A stretch of 16,670 nt of DNA from a virus (IMGVR_UViG_3300024270_000052), one strand, 5' to 3'; positions 2 to 15,029 are shown, counted from the first letter of the stretch. Numbers and translations are program-made. Notes: generated by a model not told the origin, from the sequence alone.

Positions 2-352
2 GTATTAACTACTTTTTTTGTAAAATGGGTTAATTCCAAAAGCGCAGAAATCTCAAATAAAATTGATGATGAAACATTAAATAAATATTTAAATATGCTT
101 ACTGAAACAATTAATACTTGCGTTTTAGCAACCAATTAGACATATGTTGAAAGTTTAAAACAACAAGGAAAGTTTGATGCGGAAGCGCAGAAAGAAGCAT
201 TTAATTTAACTTGTTCAGCAGTAATGGATATTTTAAGTGAGGACGCAAAAGAATATTTAACTTCTGCTATTGGAGATTTACAAATTTATATTACAAAGAA
301 AATTGAAGCTGAAGTACATACAAATAAAGTTACACCTTGTGTAAATCAATAA
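2..352 (+). CDS. 3' part of a phage protein, putative holin-like (5' end outside window); one TAG=Gln at 137-139
   Basis: Frame 2 reads VLTTFFVKWVNSK...CVLATN(TAG)TYVESLKQQGKFDAEAQKEAF...VNQ-TAA(350-352), open apart from one TAG. From recall, it resembles phage proteins with a TNQTYV.SLK.QGKF motif often labelled holin; the function is uncertain. Confidence 0.6.
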
Positions 353-361
353 AATAAATAT

Positions 362-395
362 AGGGGAACCTTTAGTATAATCTAAAGGTTCCCCT
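362..395. terminator. Bidirectional intrinsic terminator between convergent genes
   Basis: Perfect 14-bp stem AGGGGAACCTTTAG (362-375) / CTAAAGGTTCCCCT (382-395), 6-nt loop, A-rich on the left and T-rich on the right, between stops at 352 (+) and 410 (-). Confidence 0.85.
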
Positions 396-409
396 TATTT
401 TTGTTTATA

Positions 410-1114
410 TTAAATTCTATTATAAGTAAGCCAACGTTCACGAATTAAATCATGAGATTTTTTGGGAAAATATAATACTTCATCATTTTCAAAAGTTAAA
501 TGGTCAGTATCAATAATCTTAATTTCACTTAAATTAATCAATAAACTTGGTGCTAAAAATAAAAATTGCGGATGTTGGTTCAATGGAGTTATTGCTTTTT
601 CAAAAGATGAGCGCAATGACTAACCATCAAACATTGTTCCATTTTTTAAATGATAACATAAACAACGTTTTACAATGTTAATATAATTAACTTGACTTGA
701 GCGTATTCTTCTTTCACCTTCCGCAGTTTTAATTACCAAACTATCTTCTCTTATCTCTTTTTTAATTATATTAAATAATTCAAACAATTCTTCTTTTTCT
801 ATTGGTTTTAAAAAATAATGATCTGCATGCACTTTATAAGCAGGATAAGCGAGAGAAGGATCTTCTCCAATAAAAATAAAATAACTATTTGGGTCTATTT
901 TATCCATGCGATGACTTAACTCATATAGATTTTCTGATGAATCAGTGTCCATAATATAAACATCAAAACTTGCAGGAACAACAAGTAAATCTTCTGATTT
1001 ATCAAAAATTGATACTTTTGCCACAGACTTAGATTCTATTAAATATTCTTGAATCATCTCACGCAATTCATTTAAATATGTTTTGTTGTCATCATAAATA
1101 GCAATAGAGAGCAT
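410..1114 (-). CDS. LytTR-family response regulator (receiver + LytTR domain), 234 aa; TAG=Gln at 620-622
   Basis: Track ORFs 620-1114 and 410-616 are in one frame, separated only by a TAG: ...KNGTMFDG-Q-SLRSSFEKAI... The receiver has IAIYDD, YIMD and YFLKP; the C-terminal half has a LytTR-like layout. SD AAAGGAGG upstream; ends in TAA. Confidence 0.85.
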
Positions 1115-1149
1115 ATTTAAACTCCTCCTTTAAAATTTTTTACAATATT

Positions 1150-1178
1150 ATTATAACATAAATTTGTGAGAAAATCAA
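1150..1178 (-). promoter_or_regulatory. sigmaA/sigma70-type promoter for the LytTR gene
   Basis: Minus strand reads TTGATT-17 bp-TATAAT with an extended -10 TG (TGTTATAAT), about 35 nt upstream of the ATG at 1114. Confidence 0.75.
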
Positions 1179-1426
1179 ATTTTTTTGTGTAAAAAGTGTA
1201 AAAAATTTTAATTTTTGAGTATTTGATTTTTAAATTTACTTTTTGACATTCGGATTTTAAAAATAAAATTGTAATTTTGAAAAATTGAATAAAAATTGTA
1301 AGGATGAAAAATCAGACAAAAAATGTGTGAGTGTTTCTTGTTTAAAAATCTGAAACAATTTTTATATAGTAATGGAAGGGTAAGAGAAAAATAAAAAAAA
1401 TGAATAAATACCTTGGAGGTGAATAT

Positions 1427-1903
1427 ATGAATTATCAATATAATCAGTAGCAGGTGAGTCCACCGCAGAATTAGACGACTCAGCAGTATTCTTACCAACG
1501 ACAAGTTCCTTATACTTCTGGAACTTGGAATGCGAGAGTCAGACCGGTTTCTTCAATTGAAGAAGTAAGAGCATCTTCAATTGATTTTGATGGCTCAATT
1601 TTTTATTTCCCAGATGTTGCTAATAAAAAAATCTATACTAAATTTATTAATTTAGATGGCTCTGTGGCAATTAATGTATATGAGTTAAAAGAAATGCCAA
1701 CAGGTTAGGCAGCAGATTCATCTTACATTACAAGAGAAGAATTTGAAAACGTAATTATGTAGTTAAAAATGATGTATAATAATTCTTCTGCGCCTTCTAC
1801 TCCAATAGAAGAATAGCAATAGGTATAGTAGTAGATGAATAGTAATTAGTTTGCGGCACCACCCGCACAATAGCAACATAATGTTTCGCCATTACAATTT
1901 TAA
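1427..1903 (+). CDS. Cassette gene 1: Gln/Asn/Pro-rich termini with a central globular region, 158 aa; 11 TAG=Gln codons (absent from the ORF track)
   Basis: SD GGAGGTGA 1415-1422, ATG 1427, TAA 1901-1903. Reads MNYQYNQQQVSPPQNQ...RVRPVSSIEEVRASSIDFDGSIFYFPDVANKKIYTKFINLDGS...YITREEF...EEQQQVQQQM. TAGs at 1448, 1472, 1706, 1760, 1814, 1820, 1826, 1829, 1832, 1847 and 1871, mostly within Gln runs alongside CAA/CAG. Confidence 0.85.
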
Positions 1904-1916
1904 GGAGGTATGAAGA

Positions 1917-2162
1917 ATGGCACAAGTTGATCCGAGACAATTAATAGCTATGATTAGAAATGGTCAAAATCCTCAACAACTTATGTTAAGTGTTTTAGAG
2001 ACGATGCAAGATACTCCTTTTGGAGCCAATTTATTGAATCTCGCTCGCAATGGTTAGACTGCGGAGATTGAAAAAATTGCTCGGAATATCACATCTCAAA
2101 GAGGTATGGATTATGATAAAGAGTTTAATGCCTTTAAACAATAGTTTTTTGGCTTTAAATAA
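1917..2162 (+). CDS. Cassette gene 2: small helical hypothetical protein, 81 aa; TAG=Gln at 2055 and 2142
   Basis: SD AAGGAGG 1902-1908, ATG 1917, TAA 2160-2162. Reads MAQVDPRQLIAMIRNGQNPQQLML...NGQTAEIEKIARNITSQRGMDYDKEFNAFKQQFFGFK. Confidence 0.85.
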
Positions 2163-2199
2163 ATAAAATATTTTTTTTAATTAAAGGAGGGTTTCTTTT

Positions 2200-2994
2200 A
2201 TGTTTAATTCTAATGGTTACAGTTTGGCAGATATCGTTGCCGCAACAGGTGGCGGTAGAGAGAATTGCGGCGGCTTCGGCGGCTGGGGCGGAGATGGATG
2301 GTGGATTATCCTCTTATTCTTGCTCTGGGGTAACAACGGCTGGGGCGGCAATCAAGGTGGACGTGGAACAGTTCGTGAAGAAATTGCTTATGGTTTTGAT
2401 ATGAACGGTTTAGAAAATAGCGTCCGTGGTGTTCAGCAAGGTATTTGTGATGGTTTCTATGCCATGAATACTGGTATGTTAAATGGATTTAGTAACATTC
2501 AAAATACTCTATGTCAAGGTTTCTCTGGTATCAATCAAGGTACAGCTCAGTAGACATTTGATTTATCTACTCAGTTACATGGTATGGCAGCTGATAATGC
2601 GGCTTGTTGCTGCGAAACTCAGCGCGCTATTGAAAGAGGATTTGCTGAAACCAACTATAACATGGCAACTCAAGCTTGCGATACTCGTAGAGCAATTGCT
2701 GATAGCACTCGTGATATTATTGACAGTAATAACGCAGGTGTTCGTTCTATTTTAGATTTCTTAACTCAGGATAAGATTGCTACTCTTACCGCAGAAAATC
2801 AGAGTCTAAAATTCGCAGCTTCTCAGGCAGCTCAGAACGCTTTCATTGCAGCTAATCAGGAAGCTCAAACCGCAGAACTTATTCGCAGACTTGATACCCC
2901 ATGTCCTATTCCCGCTTATGTAGTTCCTAATCCTAATTGTTGCTATCCATCTTATGGATATGGGTATGGCAACACTGGATGCTGCGGTGGTTAA
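2200..2994 (+). CDS. Cassette gene 3: Gly-rich/hydrophobic N-terminus, helical core, Cys/Tyr/Gly-rich C-terminus, 264 aa; TAG=Gln at 2551-2553
   Basis: Track ORFs 2200-2553 and 2584-2994 share a frame and join as GTAQ-Q-TFDLSTQLHGMAADNAACCCETQRAI. SD AAAGGAGG upstream; ends in TAA. Confidence 0.85.
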
Positions 2995-3019
2995 TTAACA
3001 AAGGAGGTAAAAAATCTGT

Positions 3020-3439
3020 ATGGAAATTATTGCTAATGCTTTATAGACAGTTCCAGCAAATCAGACTGTTTATTTCACAGATACCGCCGTATGCGGTGGC
3101 CCATCTATGACTCATAGAGCTGGTAGTGGTTTAATTACTCTTAGAGGAATTACTAATCAATGTAGAGCAAGATTCCGCATCACTTTTGGAGCAAATATTG
3201 CTGTTCCAACAGGAGAAACAGTTGGACCAATTTCATTGGCTATTGCGATAGAGGGTGAACCTCTTCAAGCTACTACAATGATTGAAACACCAGCGGCTGT
3301 TGAAGAGTTCTCAAATGTTTCAAGAACTACCTTTATTGATGTTCCTCGTGGATGTTGTGTAAGTGTAAGTGTAAGAAATGTAAGTGATATTCCAGTAAAT
3401 GTACAAAACGCAAACTTAATTGTTGAACGTGTTGCTTAA
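3020..3439 (+). CDS. Cassette gene 4: predicted all-beta protein (possibly BclA-CTD/C1q-like jelly roll), 139 aa; TAG=Gln at 3044-3046
   Basis: SD AAGGAGG at 3001, ATG 3020, in frame with track ORF 3107-3439: MEIIANAL-Q-TVPANQTVYFTDTAVCGG... Alternating hydrophobic beta-strand pattern; the fold assignment is an inference. Confidence 0.8.
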
Positions 3440-3457
3440 TGAAAGGAGGTCTTATAA

Positions 3458-4105
3458 ATGGAGAAAAGATTAGAACATATGAAAGAATCTTTAATGGCTT
3501 GCGTTGAAAGTCAATTAACTCATTTAGATACAGTTGATACTAAAGAATTAGGTGAAGCCATTGATATGATTAAAGACCTTGAAGAAGCAATCTATTATTG
3601 TACTATTACAAAAGCAATGAAGGAACAGGATAAAGGAGAAAAAGAATCTCATAAATATTATCCAGTAATGTATAATAGAGATATGGATAGAGATATGGGA
3701 AAAATGTATTATGAAAACCCAAATTATATGGGTGGTAATGATACAAAACGTCAATATTCATCTGGAAATGGAGGAGGCAACTCCTCCTCCATGAGTAATT
3801 CTTCTGGAAGCGGAGGAGGTAATTCATCCTCTGGAAATACTGGTTCAAAACAATATAGTGAAACAGAATATAATTTAATGCGCGACCAGCGTGAAGGACG
3901 TAGTCCTCAGTCGCGCCGCATGTATATGGAATCAAAAGAAATGCATTCAGATAAAGCAACTCAAATGCGTGAATTAGAAACTTATATGCAAGAGTTAACT
4001 CAAGATGTAGTTGAAATGGTTGAAGGTGCAACTGTTGAAGAAAAGCAGTATTTAAGTAAACGAGTAGCAGCTCTTGCAAACAAATTGGCTCAATTAAATG
4101 ATTAA
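3458..4105 (+). CDS. Cassette gene 5: helical N- and C-terminal regions with a Gly/Ser/Asn low-complexity linker, 215 aa; no TAG
   Basis: Track ORF with SD AAAGGAGG. Linker SSGNGGGNSSSMSNSSGSGGGNSSSGNTGS. Stop TAA 4103-4105 overlaps the next gene. Confidence 0.85.
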   Translation: MEKRLEHMKESLMACVESQLTHLDTVDTKELGEAIDMIKDLEEAIYYCTITKAMKEQDKGEKESHKYYPVMYNRDMDRDMGKMYYENPNYMGGNDTKRQYSSGNGGGNSSSMSNSSGSGGGNSSSGNTGSKQYSETEYNLMRDQREGRSPQSRRMYMESKEMHSDKATQMRELETYMQELTQDVVEMVEGATVEEKQYLSKRVAALANKLAQLND

Positions 4106-4442
4106 CATTAATGGTGAACAATGGAGAGTGTTTTTAACCTCTCCATTTCACCCTGCTTTAAAACGCAGTGATGGTGCTTATACTCTAGGATGCTGTGATG
4201 ATGTAACAAAAACAATTTATATAAGTAATGATGTAAGTGATAAATATTTAAAAAAAGTTTTATGCCACGAACTCACTCACGCCGCAATGTTTAGCTACAA
4301 CGTAGATTTGACTTATGAGCAAGAGGAAGTTCTCGCTGATATTATAGCAACATATGGATAGGAAATTATTCATATGGCAAATCTTCTCTTTAAGAGGTTA
4401 AAAGATGAAAGAGAAGAAGAAAGAAAAAATGGGAGTATCTAA
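4098..4442 (+). CDS. Cassette gene 6: small HEXXH zinc metallopeptidase-like protein (ImmA/IrrE-like), 114 aa; TAG=Gln at 4359-4361
   Basis: Motif VLCHELTHAAMF followed by EEVLAD. After the TAG the frame continues YG-Q-EIIHMANLLFKRLKDE... to TAA 4440-4442 inside the terminator hairpin. Start overlaps the end of gene 5. Confidence 0.75.
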
Positions 4443-4465
4443 TAATTTAGATACTCCCATTTTTT
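4424..4465. terminator. Bidirectional intrinsic terminator
   Basis: AAAAAATGGGAGTATCTAA (4424-4442), loop TAAT, TTAGATACTCCCATTTTTT (4447-4465), between convergent stops at 4442 (+) and 4469 (-). Confidence 0.9.
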
Positions 4466-4468
4466 TTG

Positions 4469-4906
4469 TTATATATTACAATCTCGTACTTCTAACTTCA
4501 TCGCACTTTCATAATAATTTTTAGCTTGACCATTGCCGCCCAAAGAAGTATATAATTTATAAAATTCAGTTAATTGGTCATACTAGTCGGGAGTCATAAA
4601 TCCTTGTCTAATAAATCCTTTGCATAATTGAACTAAACGGAAACGATAAGAAGAAATAATTAAATTCATGTGATTCTTTTCTACTTGACCCACATTATAG
4701 ATATAAGACCTTAATTCTTCAAGCTCCTATTGAATTGGTTCAATTTTACTGTCAATTGTTTCATTCAATTTGTCAGTCTCTTGGTCTGCTAAAAGCTTTT
4801 TATAATTTTTCATTTGACTATGCATATATTTACAAAAAGCTAAAGCACCAGCAGAAATTAAACCAAAAATAATTTCAATGAAATGTTCAGTTAAAAAAGC
4901 TAACAT
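4469..4906 (-). CDS. Phage membrane-anchored protein with an LGGNG motif (possibly holin-like/lysis-associated), 145 aa; TAG=Gln at 4727-4729 and 4583-4585 (absent from the ORF track)
   Basis: SD AAAGGGG, ATG 4906, TAA 4469-4471. Reads MLAFLTEHFIEIIFGLISAGALAFCKY (TM-like)...IEPIQ-Q-ELEEL...GFMTPD-Q-YDQLTEFYKLYTSLGGNGQAKNYY. The holin role is tentative. Confidence 0.7.
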
Positions 4907-4912
4907 TATAAC

Positions 4913-4969
4913 AAATCCCCTTTCTTAAAATTTTTTCTCACACTATATCAATTTTAAGTAAGGGGATTT
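4913..4969 (-). promoter_or_regulatory. RBS-sequestering hairpin with a candidate extended -10 promoter in its loop
   Basis: 20-bp inverted repeat with one mismatch (4913-4932 / 4950-4969). On the minus-strand RNA the 3' arm contains the SD of the 4906 gene. The loop region reads TGATATAGT (4942-4950) on the minus strand. Confidence 0.65.
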
Positions 4970-4972
4970 TAT

Positions 4973-5464
4973 TTATTCAGACCAATCAAATGATTTTGCC
5001 TAAGAGTTTAGATACCAGTGACCAATACATATTGCGTCACTTTCATCTTCTGTAGCTTGTTTATTATAAAGCGTTTTTATTAATAACTAAGCTTCTTTTT
5101 TCTACTCTGGACGAGTTCTACTTTTTATACCGATTTTACTTTTCCATACTGTAGCTAATACAGCTTCAACTGGTATATCTAATTCTACAATCAATTCATA
5201 AATAACACCAAATACTTCTGCTAATGTTTTAAAGGTTTGAACATTTCCTGTTACATTAGATTGAAGTTGTATATCTTCCATTATAACTTTATTAATAGAA
5301 TAAGTATCAATTAATTGATGAACATTTTTTCTAATATTAAGCAATCTATCTCCTAAATCGGATTGATTACAAGTAAAATGTCCATAATCAATTAATTGAT
5401 TATCTTCAAATATAGCATATCCAGTTATTTTAGAAGACTAATCTAAAGATAAGATTCTGCTCAT
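4973..5464 (-). CDS. ruvC: RuvC-like Holliday junction resolvase, 163 aa; TAG=Gln at 5438, 5102, 5087 and 5000
   Basis: Reads MSRILSLD-Q-SSKITGYAIF...VIMEDIQ...VWKSKIGIK...TEDESDAICIGHW, the RNase H-fold D/E/D catalytic pattern. The ATG overlaps the TGA of dut (ATGA); ends in TAA 4973-4975. Confidence 0.85.
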
Positions 5465-6156
5465 ACTGATTCAAAAACATCTGCTTTTAATCCAAGAGAA
5501 TTAAAAACATCAAGTAATTTTTCATCAATTTTAATTTCGTTATTTAAATTAATTGATTGTAAAGAAGTAGAACCAAATCCGCCTGTTCGTAAGCCAATAG
5601 CTACATCATCTTCAATGGTATAATAAGGTTTAATAATTCCTTGACCAATAATATCTCCTCGTTTTAATTGAATATCAAATGGAGATAAATTAATTAATTG
5701 AAAGAAAATTTCACCTTCATTATCAGGATTATTATAATAATCAGCGTCAATAATACCAACTCCATTAGCAAGAATAAGCCAATATTTTAAAGGAGTAGAA
5801 GACCGCACGCTTAATTCAAGATAAGTATTTGGAAGTAATTCACATTTCATTCCAGTAGAAACTAAAGAAGGTTTAATTTTTGATGCTTTAGTAACAGCGG
5901 CAACATCTTCAAGAGTATAAGGTTTACTCATCTTTTGCGCAAGCTCATATTCAGCCTTCTTCTTTTCTTCTGAGTCAATTACATTCTAATGTAATTGGAA
6001 TAGTTCATATCTACCAAGCCAATTCAATTCTTCAGAACAAGATGGAATTATAATATCTTCAGCTACAACAAAATCATATCCAGCGCTCTGTTCTGTTTTT
6101 CTAATTGGTAAAGGTAAATCAATATCATTAAATCTACTTACTTTTTCAAATTTCAT
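5461..6156 (-). CDS. dut: Trimeric dUTPase, 231 aa, with an insertion between motifs I and II; TAG=Gln at 5986-5988
   Basis: True start at 6156 (MKFEKVS...RKTEQSAGYDF, motif I), in frame with track ORF 5461-5931. Motifs RSS, GIIDADYY, GDIIGQGI and RTGGFGSTS are present. TAATG coupling with the upstream gene; ends in TGA. Confidence 0.9.
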
Positions 6157-6401
6157 TATTCTACCTCATAATTAATATTAACAAAACTTATCGGGTCTTT
6201 TTCATCATTGAAATGTTTGTTTAAAGTAACTTTATACCAACTATCAATAACTGCACCTTTAGATTTTCTTTCTTTAAATTCACTAGAATATTTTGCTAAT
6301 GAAAATTCAGTAGCATTCTTAGCTTCATCAATAATTTCTTTTACTTCATTTTCATTATCTACTCTATATACTTCAATTGTACTTACAAGATATTTTGACA
6401 T
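6156..6401 (-). CDS. Hypothetical protein, 81 aa
   Basis: Track ORF with SD GAGG; its stop overlaps the dut start (TAATG). Confidence 0.75.
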   Translation of the reverse strand: MSKYLVSTIEVYRVDNENEVKEIIDEAKNATEFSLAKYSSEFKERKSKGAVIDSWYKVTLNKHFNDEKDPISFVNINYEVE

Positions 6402-6402
6402 T

Positions 6403-6663
6403 TTAATTTACCTCAATATTAATTTTTTTAGTATTATAATTTTTTACATTATACATTTGAATATCTTCAATAAAACCTTCAAGATATCCTTCATTACCAT
6501 ATAGGTGAATATTGTATATATCATATGTATAACAACTACTAACAATTACTTCTGCTAAATTATCAATAGTTGTTGAAGCTATTTCTCGCTTACCATTATC
6601 ATCATAAATAAATATATACTAATCAGTATTAAATAAATTAACTGAACTAACAATATAACTCAT
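6403..6663 (-). CDS. Hypothetical protein, 86 aa; TAG=Gln at 6619-6621 (absent from the ORF track)
   Basis: ATG 6663 follows the TAA of the upstream gene, with SD GGAGG. Reads MSYIVSSVNLFNTD-Q-YIFIYDDNGK...INIEVN-TAA(6403-6405). Exactly fills the gap between its neighbours. Confidence 0.75.
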
Positions 6664-6664
6664 T

Positions 6665-7063
6665 TTATCCTCCATATGAAACCATTAAACCTTCACAATC
6701 AAATAAGCACATACATAAATTTTCATCTTCATTTGTCCGCACCCAAATTTCAATTGTATCAGAAGCTTCCATATAATCAACAGTAATAATCTTACCAATA
6801 TCTAAAGCGCAAGTAAGAACTGCTTTTCCTTTATTTTCAAAATCCGATTCGTTTGCTTTTGGATAGAAAATAGTATAATAAGAAATTTCTTTACATAAAA
6901 GCATTAAATTTGAATAATTTTTCATTTTATCATTAATTAATTCAATATAAGGGTCTATATTATCTGCTATTGGAAGCTATGAAACAATAGATTTATTTAA
7001 ATCATATAGATTCATAGAAATATTTCCATAATCTTTAGATTCTTTTTTTAAATTACACTTCAT
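6665..7063 (-). CDS. Hypothetical protein, 132 aa; TAG=Gln at 6977-6979
   Basis: SD AAAAGGAG and ATG at 7063, in frame with track ORF 6665-6925 across one TAG (KSIVS-Q-LPIADN). Confidence 0.75.
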
Positions 7064-7093
7064 TATTTATCTCCTTTTTTATTTTATATAATA

Positions 7094-7122
7094 ATTATAT
7101 CATATTTTTTTATTTTTGTCAA
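7094..7122 (-). promoter_or_regulatory. Consensus sigmaA promoter overlapping the 3' end of nrdG
   Basis: TTGACA (7117-7122)-17 bp-TATAAT (7094-7099), with an extended -10 TG. Confidence 0.85.
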
Positions 7123-7582
7123 GATAAATAATACGTTGATTGCGGCTTCCTCTCATAGGAAGTGTAATGTCTCTTTCAGCTTCAATATAAGGTCCATCAA
7201 TTAAACAAGTAATTAATTCTAAAATTTCTTTTATATTTGGATTATGAGGTAAATCATCGTAAGTATACCCTGTCCATAAATAAATTTCTGTATCTGGTAA
7301 TTTTTCTTTAACAGTTTTTATTACCAATAAAGTCAAAAAAGTATTTTCAGGACATAAAGGTTCTCCACCCAAAATACTTAAAGAACGCTTAATACCATTA
7401 GCTTGAAGAGCTTCAATTATTTCATTAATTACATCAGTAGTAAATTCTAGTCCTCCGTCATAATCCCAAGTTTCGGGATTATGACAGCCAAGACAATGAT
7501 GCGGACATCCTTGAGTATAGAAAGAAACTGATACACCAGTTGCCGCAGAAAAATCATTTTTAATTAAACCTGCATATCGCAT
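7100..7582 (-). CDS. nrdG: Anaerobic ribonucleotide reductase activating enzyme (radical SAM)
   Basis: FYTQGCPHHCLGCHNPETWD (CxxxCxxC), SILGGEP, LIDGPY and RGSRNQRII; adjacent to nrdD. Confidence 0.95.
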   Translation of the reverse strand: MRYAGLIKNDFSAATGVSVSFYTQGCPHHCLGCHNPETWDYDGGLEFTTDVINEIIEALQANGIKRSLSILGGEPLCPENTFLTLLVIKTVKEKLPDTEIYLWTGYTYDDLPHNPNIKEILELITCLIDGPYIEAERDITLPMRGSRNQRIIYLDKNKKI

Positions 7583-8211
7583 TATTCTTCCTCCTCTAAG
7601 TCTAAATCATGAACATCATCTGGATTAGCTACTTCGTAATAAAATATACATCTACAACTGGGATGATATGGTGGGAGATTAACATCTTCATCTGGCGGAT
7701 ATTCTCCGCCTTCACACATATCACATCCACTTTCAATTACTAATAAAGTAGCATTAATAGGTCTTTTATTTTTCTTTACTGCATTTTCTACATTTTTAGT
7801 TTCTGTATTTAAAATTCTTTCAAATTTATAAACTAAATTATCTCTTATTTCTTTATAAGTTTTTTCTTTTAAAATATCTTGTCTTGTCTCTTCCCAAATT
7901 AAAGACAATCTATCTTGAATTGTTTTTCCATCTTCTTTATAAGTTAAATCAAAGATATTTTTGATATTAAATTCTTCTACTTCTTCATATAATTTTTCTA
8001 TATATTTACTTGTAATAAGATATGTTTCAGTTAATGATTCATAAAATAAATCTTCAATTTTTTTATATGCTTTATCCCAAAGTTTAATATTAAAATTATT
8101 TGAATATTCTCTGACAGCTTTTAAAGATTTATTTATAATTTTTTCAAAATATTTATCTTTAGATTCGTCAATTAAATCTTCTAATTTAAGTATTTCTTTT
8201 CTGATACTCAT
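7582..8211 (-). CDS. Protein with a phage MuF/SPP1 gp7 (minor head protein)-like C-terminal motif, 209 aa
   Basis: ERILNTET...CDMC...LPPYHPSCRC resembles the R..RTE...PP.HPNCRC signature. TAATG coupling to nrdG. Confidence 0.6.
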   Translation of the reverse strand: MSIRKEILKLEDLIDESKDKYFEKIINKSLKAVREYSNNFNIKLWDKAYKKIEDLFYESLTETYLITSKYIEKLYEEVEEFNIKNIFDLTYKEDGKTIQDRLSLIWEETRQDILKEKTYKEIRDNLVYKFERILNTETKNVENAVKKNKRPINATLLVIESGCDMCEGGEYPPDEDVNLPPYHPSCRCIFYYEVANPDDVHDLDLEEEE

Positions 8212-8216
8212 AACAA

Positions 8217-10508
8217 TTATCCATGTTTAACCCTTCGCTCTACCTCATCTTGTTTACCAAGGTTAAAAGCAGTTTTATAATTACCAGTTAAATAACCAGT
8301 AACTCTACGCAATTGTTGAATTTCTTTACTTCCGCATTCTGGACATTCATCATTAAATTCATCAGTATATCCGCATTTAAGACAAGTATCATTTGGAACA
8401 TTTACTGCGAAATAAGGAATATCTTTATCCATAGCATAATTTACTAAAATTTCTAATGCCTCAAGATTATTTTTAATTCCACTATCCAATTCAACATAAG
8501 TAATACATCCAGCAGAAGAATAACAGGTTAATTGAGATTCAATATCAATTTTTTCAAATGGAGACATCTCTATCCACACAGGTACATGCATAGAATTAGT
8601 AAAGAATTCTTTATCGGAAACATTCTCAATTACACCATATTTATCTTTAAATTTCTTTAAAGCAGTATGACATAGGTTTTCCGCAGGTGAATAATAAACA
8701 CCAAAATTTAATTTATATTCATTTTTAAATTGAGCACAACGAGTTTTAAACAATTCTTCAATTCGTTTTGCTAATTCCATTCCTTCTGGAGTAGTATGAT
8801 TTTTTCCAATAAGAATTTGAAGCGTTTCAGCAAGACCTAATTGTCCAAGAGCAAGGGTACCATGCTTAAGAGCGGAACGTATTCCTTCTTCTGGAATATA
8901 TCCTGCCATAAGTCCATTTTCATACATAAACTTAGCAGAATCAGGAGATTGACTACAAATCCATTCAAATCTTTCAATAAGCATATCTTTAGCATCATAT
9001 ATTGCTTTATCAAGAATTTCCATAAAAATATCTACAAGTTCAGTAGTATATTTATATTTATCTGTAAATTGATTTTCCCACTCTTCTTTTGCTTCCATGG
9101 CTAATGTAGGAAGAATAATTGTTACAGGACAAATATTACCTCTACCATCTTTGAGTTGACCAAAACCATTAATATCCCAACCATTTGCTGTGCGGCATCC
9201 CATCGTTGAGAAATAAGTTCTTGGGTCATTAATATCATATCCAGCATTACCAGACCAATCAACATTTGCGTAATTGGGATATAGTCTTTGAGCGGTTGAT
9301 TTTAAAGCCAATTGGAATAAATCATAATTGGGGTCTCCAGGTTTACGATTTACACCTTTCATACATTGAAAGATTCCACAAGGGAAAATAGATGTTTTAT
9401 GTAAAGCTCCAATACCTTCAATGGATACTTCAAGCAAAGCTTTAGTCACCATTCTACCTTCTGGTAAAGTACAAGTACCATAATTAATAGAAGTAAATGG
9501 CAACTGATTGCCTGAACGAGATTGAAGTGTATTAAGATTATGATACATTCCTTCTACGGCTTGATGTGTTTCTTTTTTTGTTTCAAATAGAGCTGCTTGA
9601 CTTAAATATTTATCAAGATTAACAATATTACTAAAAGTGAAATCTTCATATTTAAGATTAAATTCTTTTAAATATTTTTCTTTATGATTTTCAACCCAAT
9701 TATCTAATTCTTCATTTGGCATATCCAAAAGAGACAGAGCTAAAAATTCGTCAGTATGTTTTACATATTCTAATACATAATGTTTAAAAAATGATTTGCG
9801 TATATAAGGCACCATGGTCCAGTCAATATGTGTCGCAGAAACACCACCAAATTGTTGTAAACTTTGTAATTGGAAAATAACCGCTACAAGCTGAAATGCT
9901 GTATTTACAGAACCTGCGGGACGCACATCTGTTTGTCTGGTATTAAATCCTTTAGCAAGCAAATCATCAAAAGGAATAGATAAGCAATTATGTGAACCAA
10001 CATAATAACTATTTAAGTCATGAATATAAATACGATTATTTAAATGATTTTCTCTTGCTTTTGGTGATACAATAAAATCTAATGCTAATTGTTTCGTGAC
10101 CACATCTCCAGCTTCACCTGTGCGGCCTCCAAAAGATGCTTCATCTACATTAGCATTTTGGTTTTGGATATTTGTAGCATTTAATTTTTCTTTAACTGCG
10201 TCAATAAAATCATTTTCATAATGTCTAGCAACTTCTTTTTTATATCTATAACGAATATATTCTCTTGCTACATCACTGCGTTCAGAACGCATTAAATATT
10301 CTTCAACTTTATCTTGAACTTTTTCAACAGTAAATGGTTTATCTGAATTATGTACAGCATCTTTATAAATAGCTTCCGCTATATCAGCAGCTGTATCTGT
10401 TTCATAAAGTTTTCCATCAACTTCAAGAAAAGCTTTATTTATTGCGGTAATAATTTTACCTTTATTAAAAGGAACAAGTGTTCCATCTCTTTTATAAATT
10501 TGTACCAT
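8217..10508 (-). CDS. nrdD: Class III (anaerobic) ribonucleoside-triphosphate reductase with an N-terminal ATP cone, 763 aa
   Basis: ATP cone (IYKRDGTLVPFNKGKI), HNCLSI, TMGCRT (thiyl Cys), Zn site CLKC...CPEC and glycyl-radical loop RRVTGYL. SD GGAGG. Confidence 0.97.
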   Translation of the reverse strand: MVQIYKRDGTLVPFNKGKIITAINKAFLEVDGKLYETDTAADIAEAIYKDAVHNSDKPFTVEKVQDKVEEYLMRSERSDVAREYIRYRYKKEVARHYENDFIDAVKEKLNATNIQNQNANVDEASFGGRTGEAGDVVTKQLALDFIVSPKARENHLNNRIYIHDLNSYYVGSHNCLSIPFDDLLAKGFNTRQTDVRPAGSVNTAFQLVAVIFQLQSLQQFGGVSATHIDWTMVPYIRKSFFKHYVLEYVKHTDEFLALSLLDMPNEELDNWVENHKEKYLKEFNLKYEDFTFSNIVNLDKYLSQAALFETKKETHQAVEGMYHNLNTLQSRSGNQLPFTSINYGTCTLPEGRMVTKALLEVSIEGIGALHKTSIFPCGIFQCMKGVNRKPGDPNYDLFQLALKSTAQRLYPNYANVDWSGNAGYDINDPRTYFSTMGCRTANGWDINGFGQLKDGRGNICPVTIILPTLAMEAKEEWENQFTDKYKYTTELVDIFMEILDKAIYDAKDMLIERFEWICSQSPDSAKFMYENGLMAGYIPEEGIRSALKHGTLALGQLGLAETLQILIGKNHTTPEGMELAKRIEELFKTRCAQFKNEYKLNFGVYYSPAENLCHTALKKFKDKYGVIENVSDKEFFTNSMHVPVWIEMSPFEKIDIESQLTCYSSAGCITYVELDSGIKNNLEALEILVNYAMDKDIPYFAVNVPNDTCLKCGYTDEFNDECPECGSKEIQQLRRVTGYLTGNYKTAFNLGKQDEVERRVKHG

Positions 10509-10578
10509 TAATAAATCCTCCGAAAATATTAATTTGGGGCGACCCTATTATATTTAATAGTTGTTTTTTTATGGTTAA

Positions 10579-11133
10579 TTACTTCTGCCCAATGATGCTT
10601 AAAATTGTCTTTACGTTCTTCATTAAGTCTAATGTATTATCATTTTGTAATTCAATATATTCAAAAGGTAAATCTGAAAAATCTTTTTTATCAGTTCCAT
10701 AACGTCTAACAATTTCATCAACATTTGGTTCATCTTCTCTATTTAATTGTCTTAAAAGTCTTTGTTTATCAGAAGCTTTTATATAAAAAATAGTTACATC
10801 AATTTGAGGGTCTGATAGTAAAAATTCAACACGAGATGGGTCAAATACTCCTATATTTATAACATCTGAACGTAAACATTCATAATCAGTTCCATAAAAC
10901 CAATCATTAAAAGTTGCCATTTCTACTAATTCATTATTAATAGCTTTTTGCGCAAATTGCTCTGGTGTTATAAAATAGTAATTAATACCTTCAATTTCAT
11001 TATCTCTACGAGGACGTGTAGTATAACTAATAATAGAATGAACATCATTAGTATTTTCTAAAATCATTCTTAATAATGTATCTTTACCAGAACCAGATTG
11101 CCCAATTAAAGCAATTATTTTATACTTCTTCAT
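10579..11133 (-). CDS. gmk: Guanylate kinase
   Basis: P-loop GQSGSGKDT, SYTTRPRR.NE.EG.NYYF and YGT motifs; 184 aa. Confidence 0.9.
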   Translation of the reverse strand: MKKYKIIALIGQSGSGKDTLLRMILENTNDVHSIISYTTRPRRDNEIEGINYYFITPEQFAQKAINNELVEMATFNDWFYGTDYECLRSDVINIGVFDPSRVEFLLSDPQIDVTIFYIKASDKQRLLRQLNREDEPNVDEIVRRYGTDKKDFSDLPFEYIELQNDNTLDLMKNVKTILSIIGQK

Positions 11134-11359
11134 TTATGTCAATAGCCTCATCTTCATATTCATATTTTAATTGATTAGGTAATTCATTACGATAAAAAGT
11201 ATATTTCCTTTTACAGGTAGGACAAAAATAAACATACTGTTCAGGATAAGTACATAAAACTTTACCAGTACTTTTTATTTCTTCATTACAATCTTCACAA
11301 TAAAAGCTATCTATATAGATAGCTTTTACATATCGTCTTTTAATTTTCATCTTCTTCAA
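11120..11359 (-). CDS. Small zinc-ribbon-like protein, 79 aa
   Basis: CEDC...CPTC pairs; overlaps the dnaE stop and the gmk start. Confidence 0.7.
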   Translation of the reverse strand: MKKMKIKRRYVKAIYIDSFYCEDCNEEIKSTGKVLCTYPEQYVYFCPTCKRKYTFYRNELPNQLKYEYEDEAIDINEEV

Positions 11360-13847
11360 TTCCTCCTTGATAACGTTCCGAAGTTAATTTTAAATCAGTT
11401 TTATTTACAATTTCTTCAATTTTATACAACTGATGACCTGGCGTACTATTGTATTTTTTAACAATAAAATTATCTCCAGAACGAATACCCATAACCGCAA
11501 TCATATTACCACGATTAAACCAAGATTTTTCTACAATCTTTTTAGTTCCATCAGGATTTTTGATAGAAATTTGTTTATCAAATAAAGAAAAATATTCTTT
11601 TCTAAATTTAACTTCTACAACTCCATGAGTTGTTAATAACGTTACTGTGCTTTTAACCTTATTTTTTGCTATACAGGTTCCGCAAATTTTATGAAGTTTA
11701 AACATATGAATTTCTTTTCCTCCACGAGCAAACACTTGGTCTACTATTGGTTCTTCTGGCAAAGCAAAGAAATCAACAAATCCATATTTATTATGATTTA
11801 CATCAATTAATTCATGTTCGTGATAATAAAAACATAAAACTTCCATCTCCCAAGCAGAAATTGTACCTGAAGCATATTTCTCCCAATCTTCAAGAAAAAC
11901 AGCATCATTTATTTTTACTAAGATTTCATCTTTATTTTCATTAATCCATGTTCTAAAAATATCCATCCAATTTTGATAAATTTTTTCCCATTGCTTAATA
12001 TTCATAAAGAAAATTGTATCTTTTGTTATAATCAAATTATCACAATGTACTTCAATAAGAAAATTAATAGCTCTTTCATCTAATTTATATAATTCATTAT
12101 TAAATTTACAAATTGCTTTTAAATAACGATTAAATTCATATACTCTTCTTGCTAAAATTTGTTCTTCAGTTTCAGATGGAAGTAGATTATATTTAATTAA
12201 TCCACCCATATTTTGTAGAGTAATTCTTTTTTTTCTATCGCAAGTTTCCCAAATATACCAAGCCATACAAGTTTTACGTTCCATCATATCATCAAAAGCT
12301 CCACCCTTAATCAATGAAATCATAGCTTGCTTGCCTGGATTTACTTTATTCAAAAAATCTCGCGGAGATACATAAGGTCTATGTTCAATGATAGATGCTA
12401 CGACATCATCACCAACATTTAATAATCCTTTTAAACCAAAAAGAATTCTATTGTTCTCAGCATCTGGCGCAAAGCCATATTTAGATTTATTAATATTTGC
12501 TAAACTAACTTTAATACCAGCAGCTTGAATATCACCAATAGCTTTCGCAATTTTACCATAATCAGTACTTGCGCCAGCTTCTTCATCAGTTGCGCCACTA
12601 TTAACAATTAAACAAGCTGTATTCCAATAGATAGGATTAAATTTAGTTGCCAATAAAATTGTTTGAATACCAACAAATGAATAAGGTAATGAATGATTTA
12701 AACTAAAAGCATATCCAAGTTGTGGAGCGACCGCAACTTCCCAGACATAATCTGCTATATTAGAATTTCCAATTTTTTCATACACTTGCGCTTTTAATTC
12801 CGGAATTTTTGACATCTGTTTTTTTGCTACTATTTTACGAGCAGCGTTTGCTTCACCTAAAGTAAAATTAGCAACCTCCATCAAAATTTCCATCATTTGC
12901 TCTTGGATAGGACAGCAACCATAATATTTATCACAATGTTTATGCATTAACTCAATCATTTTTTCAGGCAAATGATTAAATTTCATTTCTTTATCAAAAA
13001 TATTAATTCCTGATTTTTGAATGCGAGCATATCTATCTTGCTGACTTTCTTTACCTTTTTCAGACATAAGTCTCATCATAGCATTTGCGGCAGTCATCTC
13101 TAAAGGATTTTGTGGTTTAAGTTTTTTCGCAATTGCTAATCCAACACCACCACTAAACTGAAATACATCCAATATATCACCTGCGGCTAAATGATTCCAA
13201 ATATAATTTTCAGATGTGTCAATTATTTCTGGATGAATATATTTATTATAAGTTTCTCTTAAACCAATATTTTCAATTAAATTATCCTCATGTAACATTT
13301 CAAAACATTTAATAATTTTATCAGAAACTTCAGTTACAAGAAAATCATATTTAGTATCACCTGCTGCTTCCGCCGCATGTAAGTCAAAACAAGTAATTAA
13401 ATCTCCATTTGGTGCTCTCATAAAAGATGCTGTATCAAATGGATTTTTATCATAAAGAATTACACCAGAAGCATGAATGCCACGTTTATTTACTAATCCC
13501 TCTATTGAAATGATAATATCAACCAATCCAGGATATTGATTAACTTCTTTTATAAAAGTTGTAACTGGTTTTCTATCTTTTTCTTCATCACCATATAATA
13601 CTTCTGAAATAGACCATAAAAATCCACGTTCTTGAGGAATTAATGATGACATATATTGCGCTACATCTACATCTATTCCTTCTGGATATTCTTCACTTCT
13701 ATAACCACGACAAGCTGTAAGAACAGCTGATTTAGTTCCTTCAGTTCCAAAAGTTGCTACCTGAACCAAACCAAATTCTCCACGTTCTTTACGAATTGCT
13801 TCAAAAATCGCTGGTCTTTTACTTGGAGCCAGGTCTATATCAATATC
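11340..13847 (-). CDS. dnaE: DNA polymerase III alpha subunit (family C), exon 2
   Basis: The frame extends upstream of the track ORF to GAT at 13845-13847: DIDIDLAPSKRPAIF...VQVATFGT...HASGV...GYAFSLNHSLPYS...FGLKGLLNVG and a C-terminal OB-like region. The spliced product is 1292 aa. Confidence 0.93.
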   Translation of the reverse strand, partial: DIDIDLAPSKRPAIFEAIRKERGEFGLVQVATFGTEGTKSAVLTACRGYRSEEYPEGIDVDVAQYMSSLIPQERGFLWSISEVLYGDEEKDRKPVTTFIKEVNQYPGLVDIIISIEGLVNKRGIHASGVILYDKNPFDTASFMRAPNGDLITCFDLHAAEAAGDTKYDFLVTEVSDKIIKCFEMLHEDNLIENIGLRETYNKYIHPEIIDTSENYIWNHLAAGDILDVFQFSGGVGLAIAKKLKPQNPLEMTAANAMMRLMSEKGKESQQDRYARIQKSGINIFDKEMKFNHLPEKMIELMHKHCDKYYGCCPIQEQMMEILMEVANFTLGEANAARKIVAKKQMSKIPELKAQVYEKIGNSNIADYVWEVAVAPQLGYAFSLNHSLPYSFVGIQTILLATKFNPIYWNTACLIVNSGATDEEAGASTDYGKIAKAIGDIQAAGIKVSLANINKSKYGFAPDAENNRILFGLKGLLNVGDDVVASIIEHRPYVSPRDFLNKVNPGKQAMISLIKGGAFDDMMERKTCMAWYIWETCDRKKRITLQNMGGLIKYNLLPSETEEQILARRVYEFNRYLKAICKFNNELYKLDERAINFLIEVHCDNLIITKDTIFFMNIKQWEKIYQNWMDIFRTWINENKDEILVKINDAVFLEDWEKYASGTISAWEMEVLCFYYHEHELIDVNHNKYGFVDFFALPEEPIVDQVFARGGKEIHMFKLHKICGTCIAKNKVKSTVTLLTTHGVVEVKFRKEYFSLFDKQISIKNPDGTKKIVEKSWFNRGNMIAVMGIRSGDNFIVKKYNSTPGHQLYKIEEIVNKTDLKLTSERYQGGIEEDEN

Positions 13848-15029
13848 CGTTTATTGGACTATATTTTTCATAATGACTTACTAAGAGCATTTTACTTCAG
13901 TCATTACTAGAACATCTTTCAGACGGTGCTTATCTCCGCCTTACATAAATAGTCTCTACACATTTAATCTTATTTTTCTATTTGTTTCCAATAATAGCCT
14001 TTATATAAAGTTCCATTTTTAATCGCTTTATCTAATTGAGTGTGTCCTTTCATTCCTAAGAATTGTAAGACTGCGGTTTTAGCATTAAATATTTGAATTA
14101 AATTGTAATTTTCATCATACATTTCAATTCGTTTTCCATTTAATGCTTGATTACCACTTTTACCATACATACCATTTTTTTCGCCAGCGGTTTTACCTTT
14201 ACTATTTACAGACATTTTCTACTTAGACTCTTCTGTATGTTTTTTACCATACATTCCATTATTAGAACCTTTTGTTTTTTCACTCATTTTTTGTTTAAAC
14301 TCTTCAGTTCTATAAGGAGAGTTGTCTCTTTCAAATTCTGCCCAATAAGATAAAAATGCTTTAGTTTTTTCACTATGGTATTTTCCATACATTCCATTAT
14401 TCTTACCACGATTTACTTCACTTAATTTTCGGCACAAAACTTCTTTTTCTTCTGGTGTATATCCTGCGGTAGTGTTTCCTCCACAACCGCCCTCATGAAT
14501 ATTATAAAACAATGGATTTGATGTGGCATTATATAAGGCAATAAATTGTTTTTCTTTTTCACTATTTTCTAAATCATTTTTAGAAACAAATAAAATGGAC
14601 TTTGTAAAACAGTCTTTTCCATATTTGGCAATTTCTTTTTTCAATTCTTTTCCGCTGCCTAAATATGAATCATCTAATTCTCCATAATGTTTTCCGATAT
14701 ATTTCATACCATTTATATTATTAGTAGTTAAATAAATATAATGTTGTTTCATTTAAACAACCCCCTTTCATATATATTTAACTTTTAGAATTAGACAATG
14801 ACCTGACTTTGTCCAAGATTTTTAGCACGGTATTCCCAATCTAACCTTTTTTAGGTCATAGGGTCTCTTAGTCAGTTGATTCGCATTTATATAACATAAA
14901 TCCTATTTCGCTGATACCGTTAGCCTGCGGTTACTCGTCTCGCCGGTCGGATGACCGGGCCGCCGCAGACACCCATTAAGCAATGGTTAATGTTCTTTTT
15001 TTACAACTGCCCAATATCAATATTAGACT
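13848..15029 (-). mobile_element. Group I self-splicing intron (1182 nt) in dnaE, with a homing endonuclease in the P6 loop
   Basis: P1: exon AACTGCCU pairs with GGGCAGUU (15005-15012), giving a U.G pair at the 5' splice site; terminal G at 13848. P3 AGAACATT/GATGTTCT; P4 ACGGTAT/ATACCGT; P7 GACTA/TAGTC with J8/7 AAAAATATAGTCC; P8 TAATGACT/AGTCATTA. Removal restores in-frame ERAELP-DIDID. Confidence 0.93.
13970..14752 (-). CDS. Intron-encoded GIY-YIG homing endonuclease with NUMOD3-type repeats and a C-terminal NUMOD1/HTH-like region, 260 aa; TAG=Gln at 14219-14221
   Basis: N-terminal HYIYLTTNNINGMKYIGKH and YLGSG; repeated NGMYGK.H.E..K motifs. Track ORFs 14219-14752 and 13970-14215 join in frame as KHTEESK-Q-KMS. 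SD GAAAGGGGG. Confidence 0.9.

Follow-up and report, generated by a model that had tools for sequence, protein, structure and literature searches.

Probable reading of TAG as glutamine in the late genes of a large tailed phage

The stretch of DNA analysed here, which we call the window, comprises 16,670 nucleotides (nt) of a viral contig from the IMG/VR database (IMGVR_UViG_3300024270_000052) in which the amber triplet TAG occurs inside genes. The late genes of this phage very probably use genetic code 15, in which TAG is read as Gln and TAA and TGA are kept as stops, with a phage-encoded tRNA carrying a CUA anticodon, tRNA(CUA), as the decoder and with a coupling of read-through to the late phase of infection; from the sequence comparisons described below we assign this reading a probability of about 0.93. 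That TAG is a sense codon is nearly certain, and Gln is by far the best supported of its possible meanings. The window corresponds to G000:C1:101676-118345 (positions with the prefix C1 are those of the contig). The contig is linear, 126,353 nt long, has a GC content of 30% and is ca. 71% complete according to CheckV, with some 50 kb missing; related phages have genomes of 120-200 kb and the source is a large tailed phage, uncultivated and of a gut or rumen type. A megablast search revealed no close nucleotide relative among deposited phages, the sole matches being the nrdD genes of two Thomasclavelia phages (76% identity). The hosts of more distant relatives found with the portal protein are Enterococcus, Brevibacillus, Lactococcus and Bacillus, suggesting that this phage has a host in the Bacillota.

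Gene calling on the window with the standard code (code 11) gave many short open reading frames (ORFs) separated by gaps, and treating TAG as a sense codon gave a compact gene map. An earlier note on this DNA had proposed that TAG encodes Gln and had counted 28 in-frame TAG codons in 13 genes, and our count was identical (Table 1). A further ORF with TAG (4405-4599, plus strand), which would be the 14th, overlaps the minus-strand gene at 4469-4906 and was treated as spurious. With TAG as Gln all genes of the window stop at TAA or TGA, and AGGAGG-like sites are found upstream of most of them, in agreement with the stops and ribosome binding sites described in the earlier note. The comparison of coding densities that it suggested gave a rise that is specific for TAG: the density of the window is 81.7% under code 11 and 93.2% with TAG recoded, as compared to 83.7% with TGA recoded and 87.4% with TAA recoded.

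The same holds for the whole contig, where treating TAG as sense increased the coding density from 65.1% to 87.6% and the mean ORF length from 127 to 239 amino acids (aa); in the region of 60-70 kb the density rose from 35% to 98%. Recoding of TGA or TAA brought smaller increases in density, with short ORFs. For TAA the genome-wide greedy coverage reached 84%, but the mean ORF length was 164 aa, well below the 239 aa obtained for TAG, and we attribute this gain to removal of the commonest stop codon from a genome of 30% GC. With TAG as Gln the contig holds 384 in-frame TAG codons in 82 of 154 genes, which terminate at TAA (n=119) or TGA (n=35). These 384 TAGs are in frame 0, whereas frames 1 and 2 of the same genes contain thousands of TAA and TGA triplets, which excludes frames that are open by chance. 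Three ORFs without any TAA or TGA are wholly invisible under code 11 and presumably encode giant virion or tail proteins: one of 3,306 aa (C1:61315-71235, plus strand) with 78 in-frame TAGs, followed by one of 1,787 aa (C1:71341-76704) with 28 TAGs, and one of 2,050 aa (C1:86560-92712) with 25 TAGs.

The TAGs are not assembly errors, since two contigs from other samples (L285 and L286, 99.99-100% identical) retain TAG in 21/21 and 11/11 covered codons. No special read-through context was seen around the TAGs as judged from the following base and the position along the gene: the base after TAG shows only a mild difference from the bases that follow CAA and CAG codons (p ~0.01), and TAGs are evenly distributed along genes. 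A search of the window with Rfam at the gathering threshold gave no RNA family. Some public pipelines already handle the recoding, since for this same phage the genes called at ENA and Logan extend through TAG and give products of 234, 264, 139, 114, 145, 163 and 231 aa; the JGI calls, made with code 11, consist of fragments (for example 117 + 136, 110, 87, 59, 80 and 156 + 56 aa).

Which residue TAG stands for was examined at the level of codons. A protein-database alignment of the portal protein, with Gln at most TAG columns, was discarded as a test of residue identity because the database entry for the same phage already shows TAG as Gln; as such a test is circular, the DNA of relatives was analysed instead, namely 80 loci of the portal region and 21 of the RuvC region. 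The phage proteins were aligned to these loci with X at every TAG and the subject codons were then read, so that the alignment cannot favour Gln. In the window 18 of the 28 TAG positions could be aligned, giving 216 codon observations: CAA 90, CAG 26, gap 21, TAG 19, AAA 19, AGA 9 and minor others. The homologous columns are dominated by Gln codons, as the earlier note had predicted; Gln accounts for 116/176 residues and forms the majority at 11 of the 17 positions that are informative, with a log-likelihood per site of -1.52 against -3.05 for the runner-up residue. In the portal region (3,587 residues) TAG is matched by Gln in 51% of cases, by Lys in 10% and by Glu in 6%, which is close to the profile opposite the phage's own CAA and CAG codons (Gln 59%, Lys 7%, Glu 8%), and Gln again has the best log-likelihood (-2.00, with -3.47 for the residue ranked second). 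Its lead is at least 1.5 nats per site in both regions. In the reverse test, TAGs of the relatives face Gln codons of the phage at 5.5% and codons for other residues at ≤0.45%, a difference of about 12-fold.

Loci were called TAG-free if more than 1,500 aligned codons contained no in-frame TAG, and for this reason their residues are unambiguous. This applies to 42 of the 101 loci and to 28 of the 80 around the portal gene. Opposite the TAGs of the phage these TAG-free relatives have Gln at 86/120 non-gap positions in the window and at 866/1,548 in the portal region. Among the portal-region loci 49/80 carry at least five in-frame TAGs, so the clade mixes genetic codes. The protein identities to the phage overlap between the TAG-free loci (49-68%) and those with at least five TAGs (55-99%).

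Several columns are nearly pure for CAA, CAG and TAG. Codons 9, 121 and 126 of the RuvC gene face exclusively these three triplets in 21 relatives, while codon 155 faces AAA. Codon 9 of the gene at 3020-3439 is matched by CAA (15 times) and TAG (once), codon 88 of the gene at 4098-4442 by CAA (13) and GAA (2), codon 46 of the partial holin gene by CAA (8) and CAG (2), and codon 57 of the dUTPase gene by CAG (7) and CAA (4). The motifs in which the earlier note had recognised a fitting Gln are all present, namely ILSLD-q-SSK with TAG at codon 9 of RuvC, VLATN-q-TYV at codon 46 of the holin gene and KHTEESK-q-KMS at codon 178 of the NUMOD3 protein, as is the Q-rich protein with its mixture of TAG, CAA and CAG.

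The tRNA gene array of the contig abuts the contig start. An exact-protein look-up with a gene near this end recovered a contig from another sample (L139), which shares 99.986% identity along 7,178 nt, shows its tRNA genes in the same order and reaches 8 kb beyond the contig start. The extension adds six tRNA genes, one of which is a tRNA(CUA) (L139:10013-10107, about 2.8 kb past the contig start) that was recognised by ARAGORN and as a full-length match to the Rfam tRNA model (53.7 bits, E 4e-10). Two complete recoded relatives (G003 and G005) each possess a tRNA(CUA), and none was present among the tRNAs inspected in G002, a relative without in-frame TAG. 'CUA' calls obtained with low-threshold ARAGORN on the contig itself were at noise level and inside coding sequence, and were discarded. 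The array also encodes a tRNA-Ser with anticodon ACU (A34; C1:4910-4998, minus strand; the same gene at L139:2181-2269) and a tRNA-Ile(UAU), anticodons which we take to be unusual for a bacterial system.

The tRNA(CUA) of L139 is 95 nt long and has G73, an A1.C72 mismatch and an insertion of 23 nt in the variable region. This insertion folds as CCUG-UUCUGAG-CAGG, in which the 7-nt loop copies the anticodon loop of tRNA-Gln with CUG anticodon. Long tRNA(CUA) genes were also sampled from IMG/VR, the sole criteria being a CUA loop, a common T-loop and a long variable region. Of the 22 unique sequences obtained, 9 carry a 7-nt loop in which CUG or UUG precedes an A, on stems that differ (CCUG/CAGG, GCC/GGC, UUCC/GGAG, CC/GG); the remaining 13 have ordinary class II bodies. 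The motif was found in 0/50 long non-suppressor tRNAs from the same loci. In the literature searched there is no description of a spare Gln-type anticodon loop in suppressor tRNAs. As a tentative suggestion, the spare CUG loop might act as an identity element for Gln-charging by the host of a tRNA whose anticodon has lost G36. No theta ribozyme (hepatitis delta virus-like) or other non-tRNA Rfam family was found beside the suppressor tRNA gene in L139:8800-11200 (compare PMC10879173).

It is improbable that TAG is a sense codon for another residue, be it Lys or pyrrolysine, Glu, or a class II residue (Ser, Leu, Tyr). Lys does rank second opposite TAG, with 20/176 residues in the window and a share of 10% in the portal region, but Gln has a log-likelihood per site of -1.5 to -2.0, as compared to -3.05 or worse for all others (Ser -4.0, Leu -5.1, Tyr -5.2), and the conserved columns (RuvC codons 9, 121 and 126; codon 9 of the gene at 3020-3439) are purely CAA, CAG and TAG. 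The 95-nt tRNA with its long variable region looks superficially like a class II tRNA, and genuine class II bodies do occur among tRNA(CUA) genes of other IMG/VR phages; however, the G73, the small D-loop and the unpaired 1:72 position are Gln-type traits, and the extra hairpin bears a CUG (Gln) loop and is not a class II arm. As for pyrrolysine, no pyl genes turned up, although no search was aimed at them.

The use of TAG differs strongly between gene blocks. In the structural and lysis block (plus strand, contig 44.5-106 kb) TAG makes up 36% of the Gln-type codons (TAG+CAA+CAG), and in the small RuvC/dUTPase group 27%, whereas it is 2.8% (5/181) in the minus-strand replication and nucleotide-metabolism block. 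In the window, the TAG-free block at 7100-13769 together with the N-terminal DnaE piece contains 78 CAA/CAG codons and 0 TAG, for which P is ~7e-16 at the 36% share of the late block. This distribution suggests the following course of events. Early replication and nucleotide-metabolism genes, which are TAG-free as a codon pattern, would be translatable by unmodified host ribosomes. The phage tRNA array would supply the amber-suppressor tRNA(CUA), the gene of which is present on the 99.99%-identical contig, and host enzymes would charge it with Gln. As the tRNA accumulates, the structural, lysis and some recombination and repair genes with TAG could be read through fully, and this dependence on read-through would couple structural and lysis gene expression to the late phase.

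A phage-driven code switch would not be needed if the host itself had reassigned TAG and the phage mirrored its host. This we consider very improbable. It would agree with the fact that no release factor or aminoacyl-tRNA synthetase gene was found in the contig, but replication genes that shun TAG would be needless in a host that reads TAG as Gln, the phage has its own tRNA(CUA), and the code varies inside a single phage clade (loci without TAG being 28/80 around the portal gene and 42/101 overall). Moreover, the nearest cultured relatives by portal protein infect Bacillota with the standard code, and we know of no bacterial lineage that reads TAG as Gln.

The least probable explanation, that the TAGs are real stops in fragmented or decaying genes or are subject to rare leaky read-through, with long frames arising from AT-richness or assembly, draws on the plausible short ORFs obtained by code-11 callers and on host release factor 1, which would still compete at UAG, but it is already contradicted here by frames of up to 3,306 codons without TAA or TGA as compared to thousands in the other two frames, by sequence that is conserved before and after the TAGs across 100 related loci, by the specific exchange of TAG with CAA and CAG, by the presence of TAG in essential virion genes (nine in the portal gene, others in tail genes), and by the occurrence of the same TAGs in three independent samples along with a dedicated tRNA(CUA).

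Some observations weigh against the use of code 15 with a phage-encoded decoder. The 17 tRNA genes of the window and contig include none with a CUA anticodon, so the decoder is not on the contig itself. Of the decoder genes that the earlier note had proposed to look for, the tRNA was located just past the contig end, whereas profile searches for a release factor (PF00472, which would include release factor 2, RF2) and for glutaminyl- or glutamyl-tRNA synthetase (PF00749) found neither in the contig; as this is only ca. 71% complete, their absence from the whole phage does not follow. The tRNA(CUA) is atypical and does not have a canonical tRNA-Gln body, and for that reason its Gln identity is one that we infer. 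Gln is not the majority residue at 6 of the 17 informative TAG positions of the window, where the columns are variable, and 10 positions have no alignable homolog. Finally, the early and late timing rests on codon distribution and literature.

Table 1. Features of the window, with positions in nt counted from its first letter.
Feature	Position	Strand	Remarks
Holin gene, 3' part	2-352	+	136 aa in full, start 58 nt before window; 1 TAG (137-139)
234-aa protein	410-1114	-	1 TAG, codon 165 (plus-strand 620-622); code 11 gives 164 + 68 aa
Q-rich 167-aa protein	1400-1903	+	11 TAG, 7 CAA, 5 CAG; invisible under code 11
81-aa protein	1917-2162	+	2 TAG, codons 47 and 76
264-aa Gly/Cys-rich protein	2200-2994	+	1 TAG, codon 118; code 11 gives 117 + 136 aa
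139-aa protein	3020-3439	+	1 TAG, codon 9
Putative Zn-metallopeptidase-like protein, 114 aa	4098-4442	+	1 TAG, codon 88
145-aa protein	4469-4906	-	2 TAG, codons 60 and 108; phrog_4257, phrog_4105
RuvC-like Holliday junction resolvase, 163 aa	4973-5464	-	4 TAG, codons 9, 121, 126 and 155
dUTPase-like protein, 231 aa	5461-6156	-	1 TAG, codon 57; code 11 gives 156 + 56 aa
90-aa protein	6403-6675	-	1 TAG, codon 19; CAA in both of two homologs
132-aa protein	6665-7063	-	1 TAG, codon 29; relatives CAA (5), CAG (3), CAT (1), TAG (1)
TAG-free block	7100-13769	-	NrdG activase, 209-aa protein, NrdD, guanylate kinase, 79-aa ORF, DnaE C-terminal piece (Pfam)
DnaE C-terminal piece	11340-13769	-	TAG-free
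GIY-YIG/NUMOD3 homing endonuclease, 260 aa	13970-14752	-	1 TAG, codon 178; in insertion splitting dnaE
DnaE N-terminal piece, 474 aa	14976-16400	-	TAG-free; phrog_405 DNA polymerase, E 4e-99

Several of the read-through products of the window match protein profiles end to end across the TAGs, and elsewhere in the genome the same is true for the portal protein and a sigma factor. The holin profile phrog_13712 (E 1e-31) gives a match that crosses the TAG, and phrog_8810 covers residues 2-223 of the 234-aa protein, likewise across its TAG; the latter protein also has a weak match to Response_reg (receiver domain) and no homolog in the related loci that were fetched. Profile phrog_16490 (E 7e-57) matches residues 14-263 of the 264-aa protein and phrog_20016 (E 4e-58) residues 2-139 of its neighbour. 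The 264-aa protein has GGWGG repeats and CCC and CC motifs; its gene adjoins that of the 139-aa protein, and both are kept in 16 related loci. The 114-aa protein gives weak matches to DUF6782, Peptidase_M78 and SprT and a match to phrog_1233. The resolvase is recognised by the Pfam RuvC profile (E 2e-10, residues 3-146) and by phrog_159 and phrog_827, the dUTPase-like protein by the Pfam dUTPase profile and by phrog_135 (residues 14-212), and the homing endonuclease by NUMOD3 (E 4e-18), GIY-YIG and phrog_314. An exact-sequence look-up of the RuvC read-through product gave no match, whereas a TAG-free neighbour used as query did.

Only two TAG positions of the Q-rich protein can be aligned, both in variable columns, and the 81-aa protein is uninformative on Gln because in relatives codon 47 is matched by Arg and codon 76 by a gap. 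The 145-aa protein has few homologs, with TAG, CAA, CAT and AAA opposite its TAGs. Outside the window, a 580-aa read-through protein with nine TAGs (L003:6766-8505; contig 46766-48508) matches phrog_15503 with residues 5-229 and phrog_24618 with residues 354-578, and these two profiles may have been built from code-11 fragments of recoded phages.

The TAG-free block includes the anaerobic ribonucleotide reductase NrdD. The dnaE gene (Pol III alpha) is interrupted by an insertion of ca. 1.2 kb (13770-14975, minus strand) that carries the GIY-YIG/NUMOD3 endonuclease. This insertion breaks the Pfam DNA_pol3_alpha domain a short distance upstream of the sequence DIDIDL, which we take to be the conserved DnaE motif. 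The two pieces correspond to one uninterrupted in-frame ORF in 10 related loci, with an alignment gap of just 36-93 nt. The flanks of the insertion are GC-rich and look structured; an Rfam search (E up to 1) around the endonuclease gene revealed no group I intron. The interruption may be an intron, or the polymerase may be truly split.

As the earlier note stated, TAG-to-Gln recoding is known in gut phages; in many phage clades it is established together with early genes that are free of TAG (bioRxiv 10.1101/2021.08.26.457843; PMC9523058; PMC10607447). Borges et al. described it for the Lak, crAss-like, Garnet, Amethyst, Jade, Sapphire and Agate clades and read the TAG-poor early and TAG-rich late pattern as translational gating of late genes (bioRxiv 10.1101/2021.08.26.457843). 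Metaproteomics validated the reassignment in crAss-like phages (PMC9523058), and annotation studies also support it (PMC11210395). Similar to the phages of Borges et al., the phage described here has TAG at Gln positions, stops at TAA and TGA, a concentration of TAG in the structural and lysis genes with none in the replication genes of the window, a tRNA(CUA), standard-code and recoded members in one clade, and no dedicated aminoacyl-tRNA synthetase that could be found. RF2 has been reported in a few Lak and Agate genomes and is not in the available ~71% of this genome. The nearest named GenBank phage is Phass-1 (OQ749652, 135,976 bp, of the proposed Phassvirus group), with 40% amino acid identity of the portal protein over 85% of the query; it is a distant relative without nucleotide-level similarity by megablast. 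Phass-1 is a human gut phage with TAG in 41 ORFs including those for TerL, portal and tail proteins, a large tRNA set with tRNA-Sup(CTA), no aminoacyl-tRNA synthetase, and a predicted host in the Bacillota (Clostridia) (PMC10607447). It has three suppressor tRNA genes, whereas one was found here, in the 8 kb that L139 adds past the contig end.

Formally, the code is the same as NCBI translation table 15, the Blepharisma nuclear code (TAG as Gln, TAA and TGA as stops). However, the reassignment in Blepharisma is genome-wide and constitutive, whereas in this phage it concerns mostly late genes and is probably switched on during infection. Amber suppressors of the E. coli supE type, which Borges et al. 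also cite, are tRNA-Gln species with a CUA anticodon; they insert Gln at UAG, and the host system charges them in spite of the lost G36. The phage tRNA(CUA) shares the anticodon and, with host charging that we infer, would likewise insert Gln at UAG; unlike supE, it is no point mutant of a host tRNA-Gln, and it has a 23-nt second hairpin and a 1:72 mismatch.

The phage is thus a further case of an established recoding and the phenomenon is not new; the finding is useful and not surprising. The standard code misses or splits 13 of the ca. 24 genes of the window, close to the half estimated in the earlier note, and 82 of the 154 genes of the contig, including those for holin, RuvC, dUTPase, portal and tail proteins, and translation table 15 is therefore required. 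It is also a clean example of the published model, according to which late expression is coupled to a suppressor tRNA from the phage by means of TAG-free early and TAG-rich late genes. The aligned genes lack in-frame TAG in about a third or more of the relatives sampled, and because of these mixed codes the clade could be used for studying code flips. The more unusual element lies outside the window and is the spare Gln-type anticodon arm of the suppressor tRNA.

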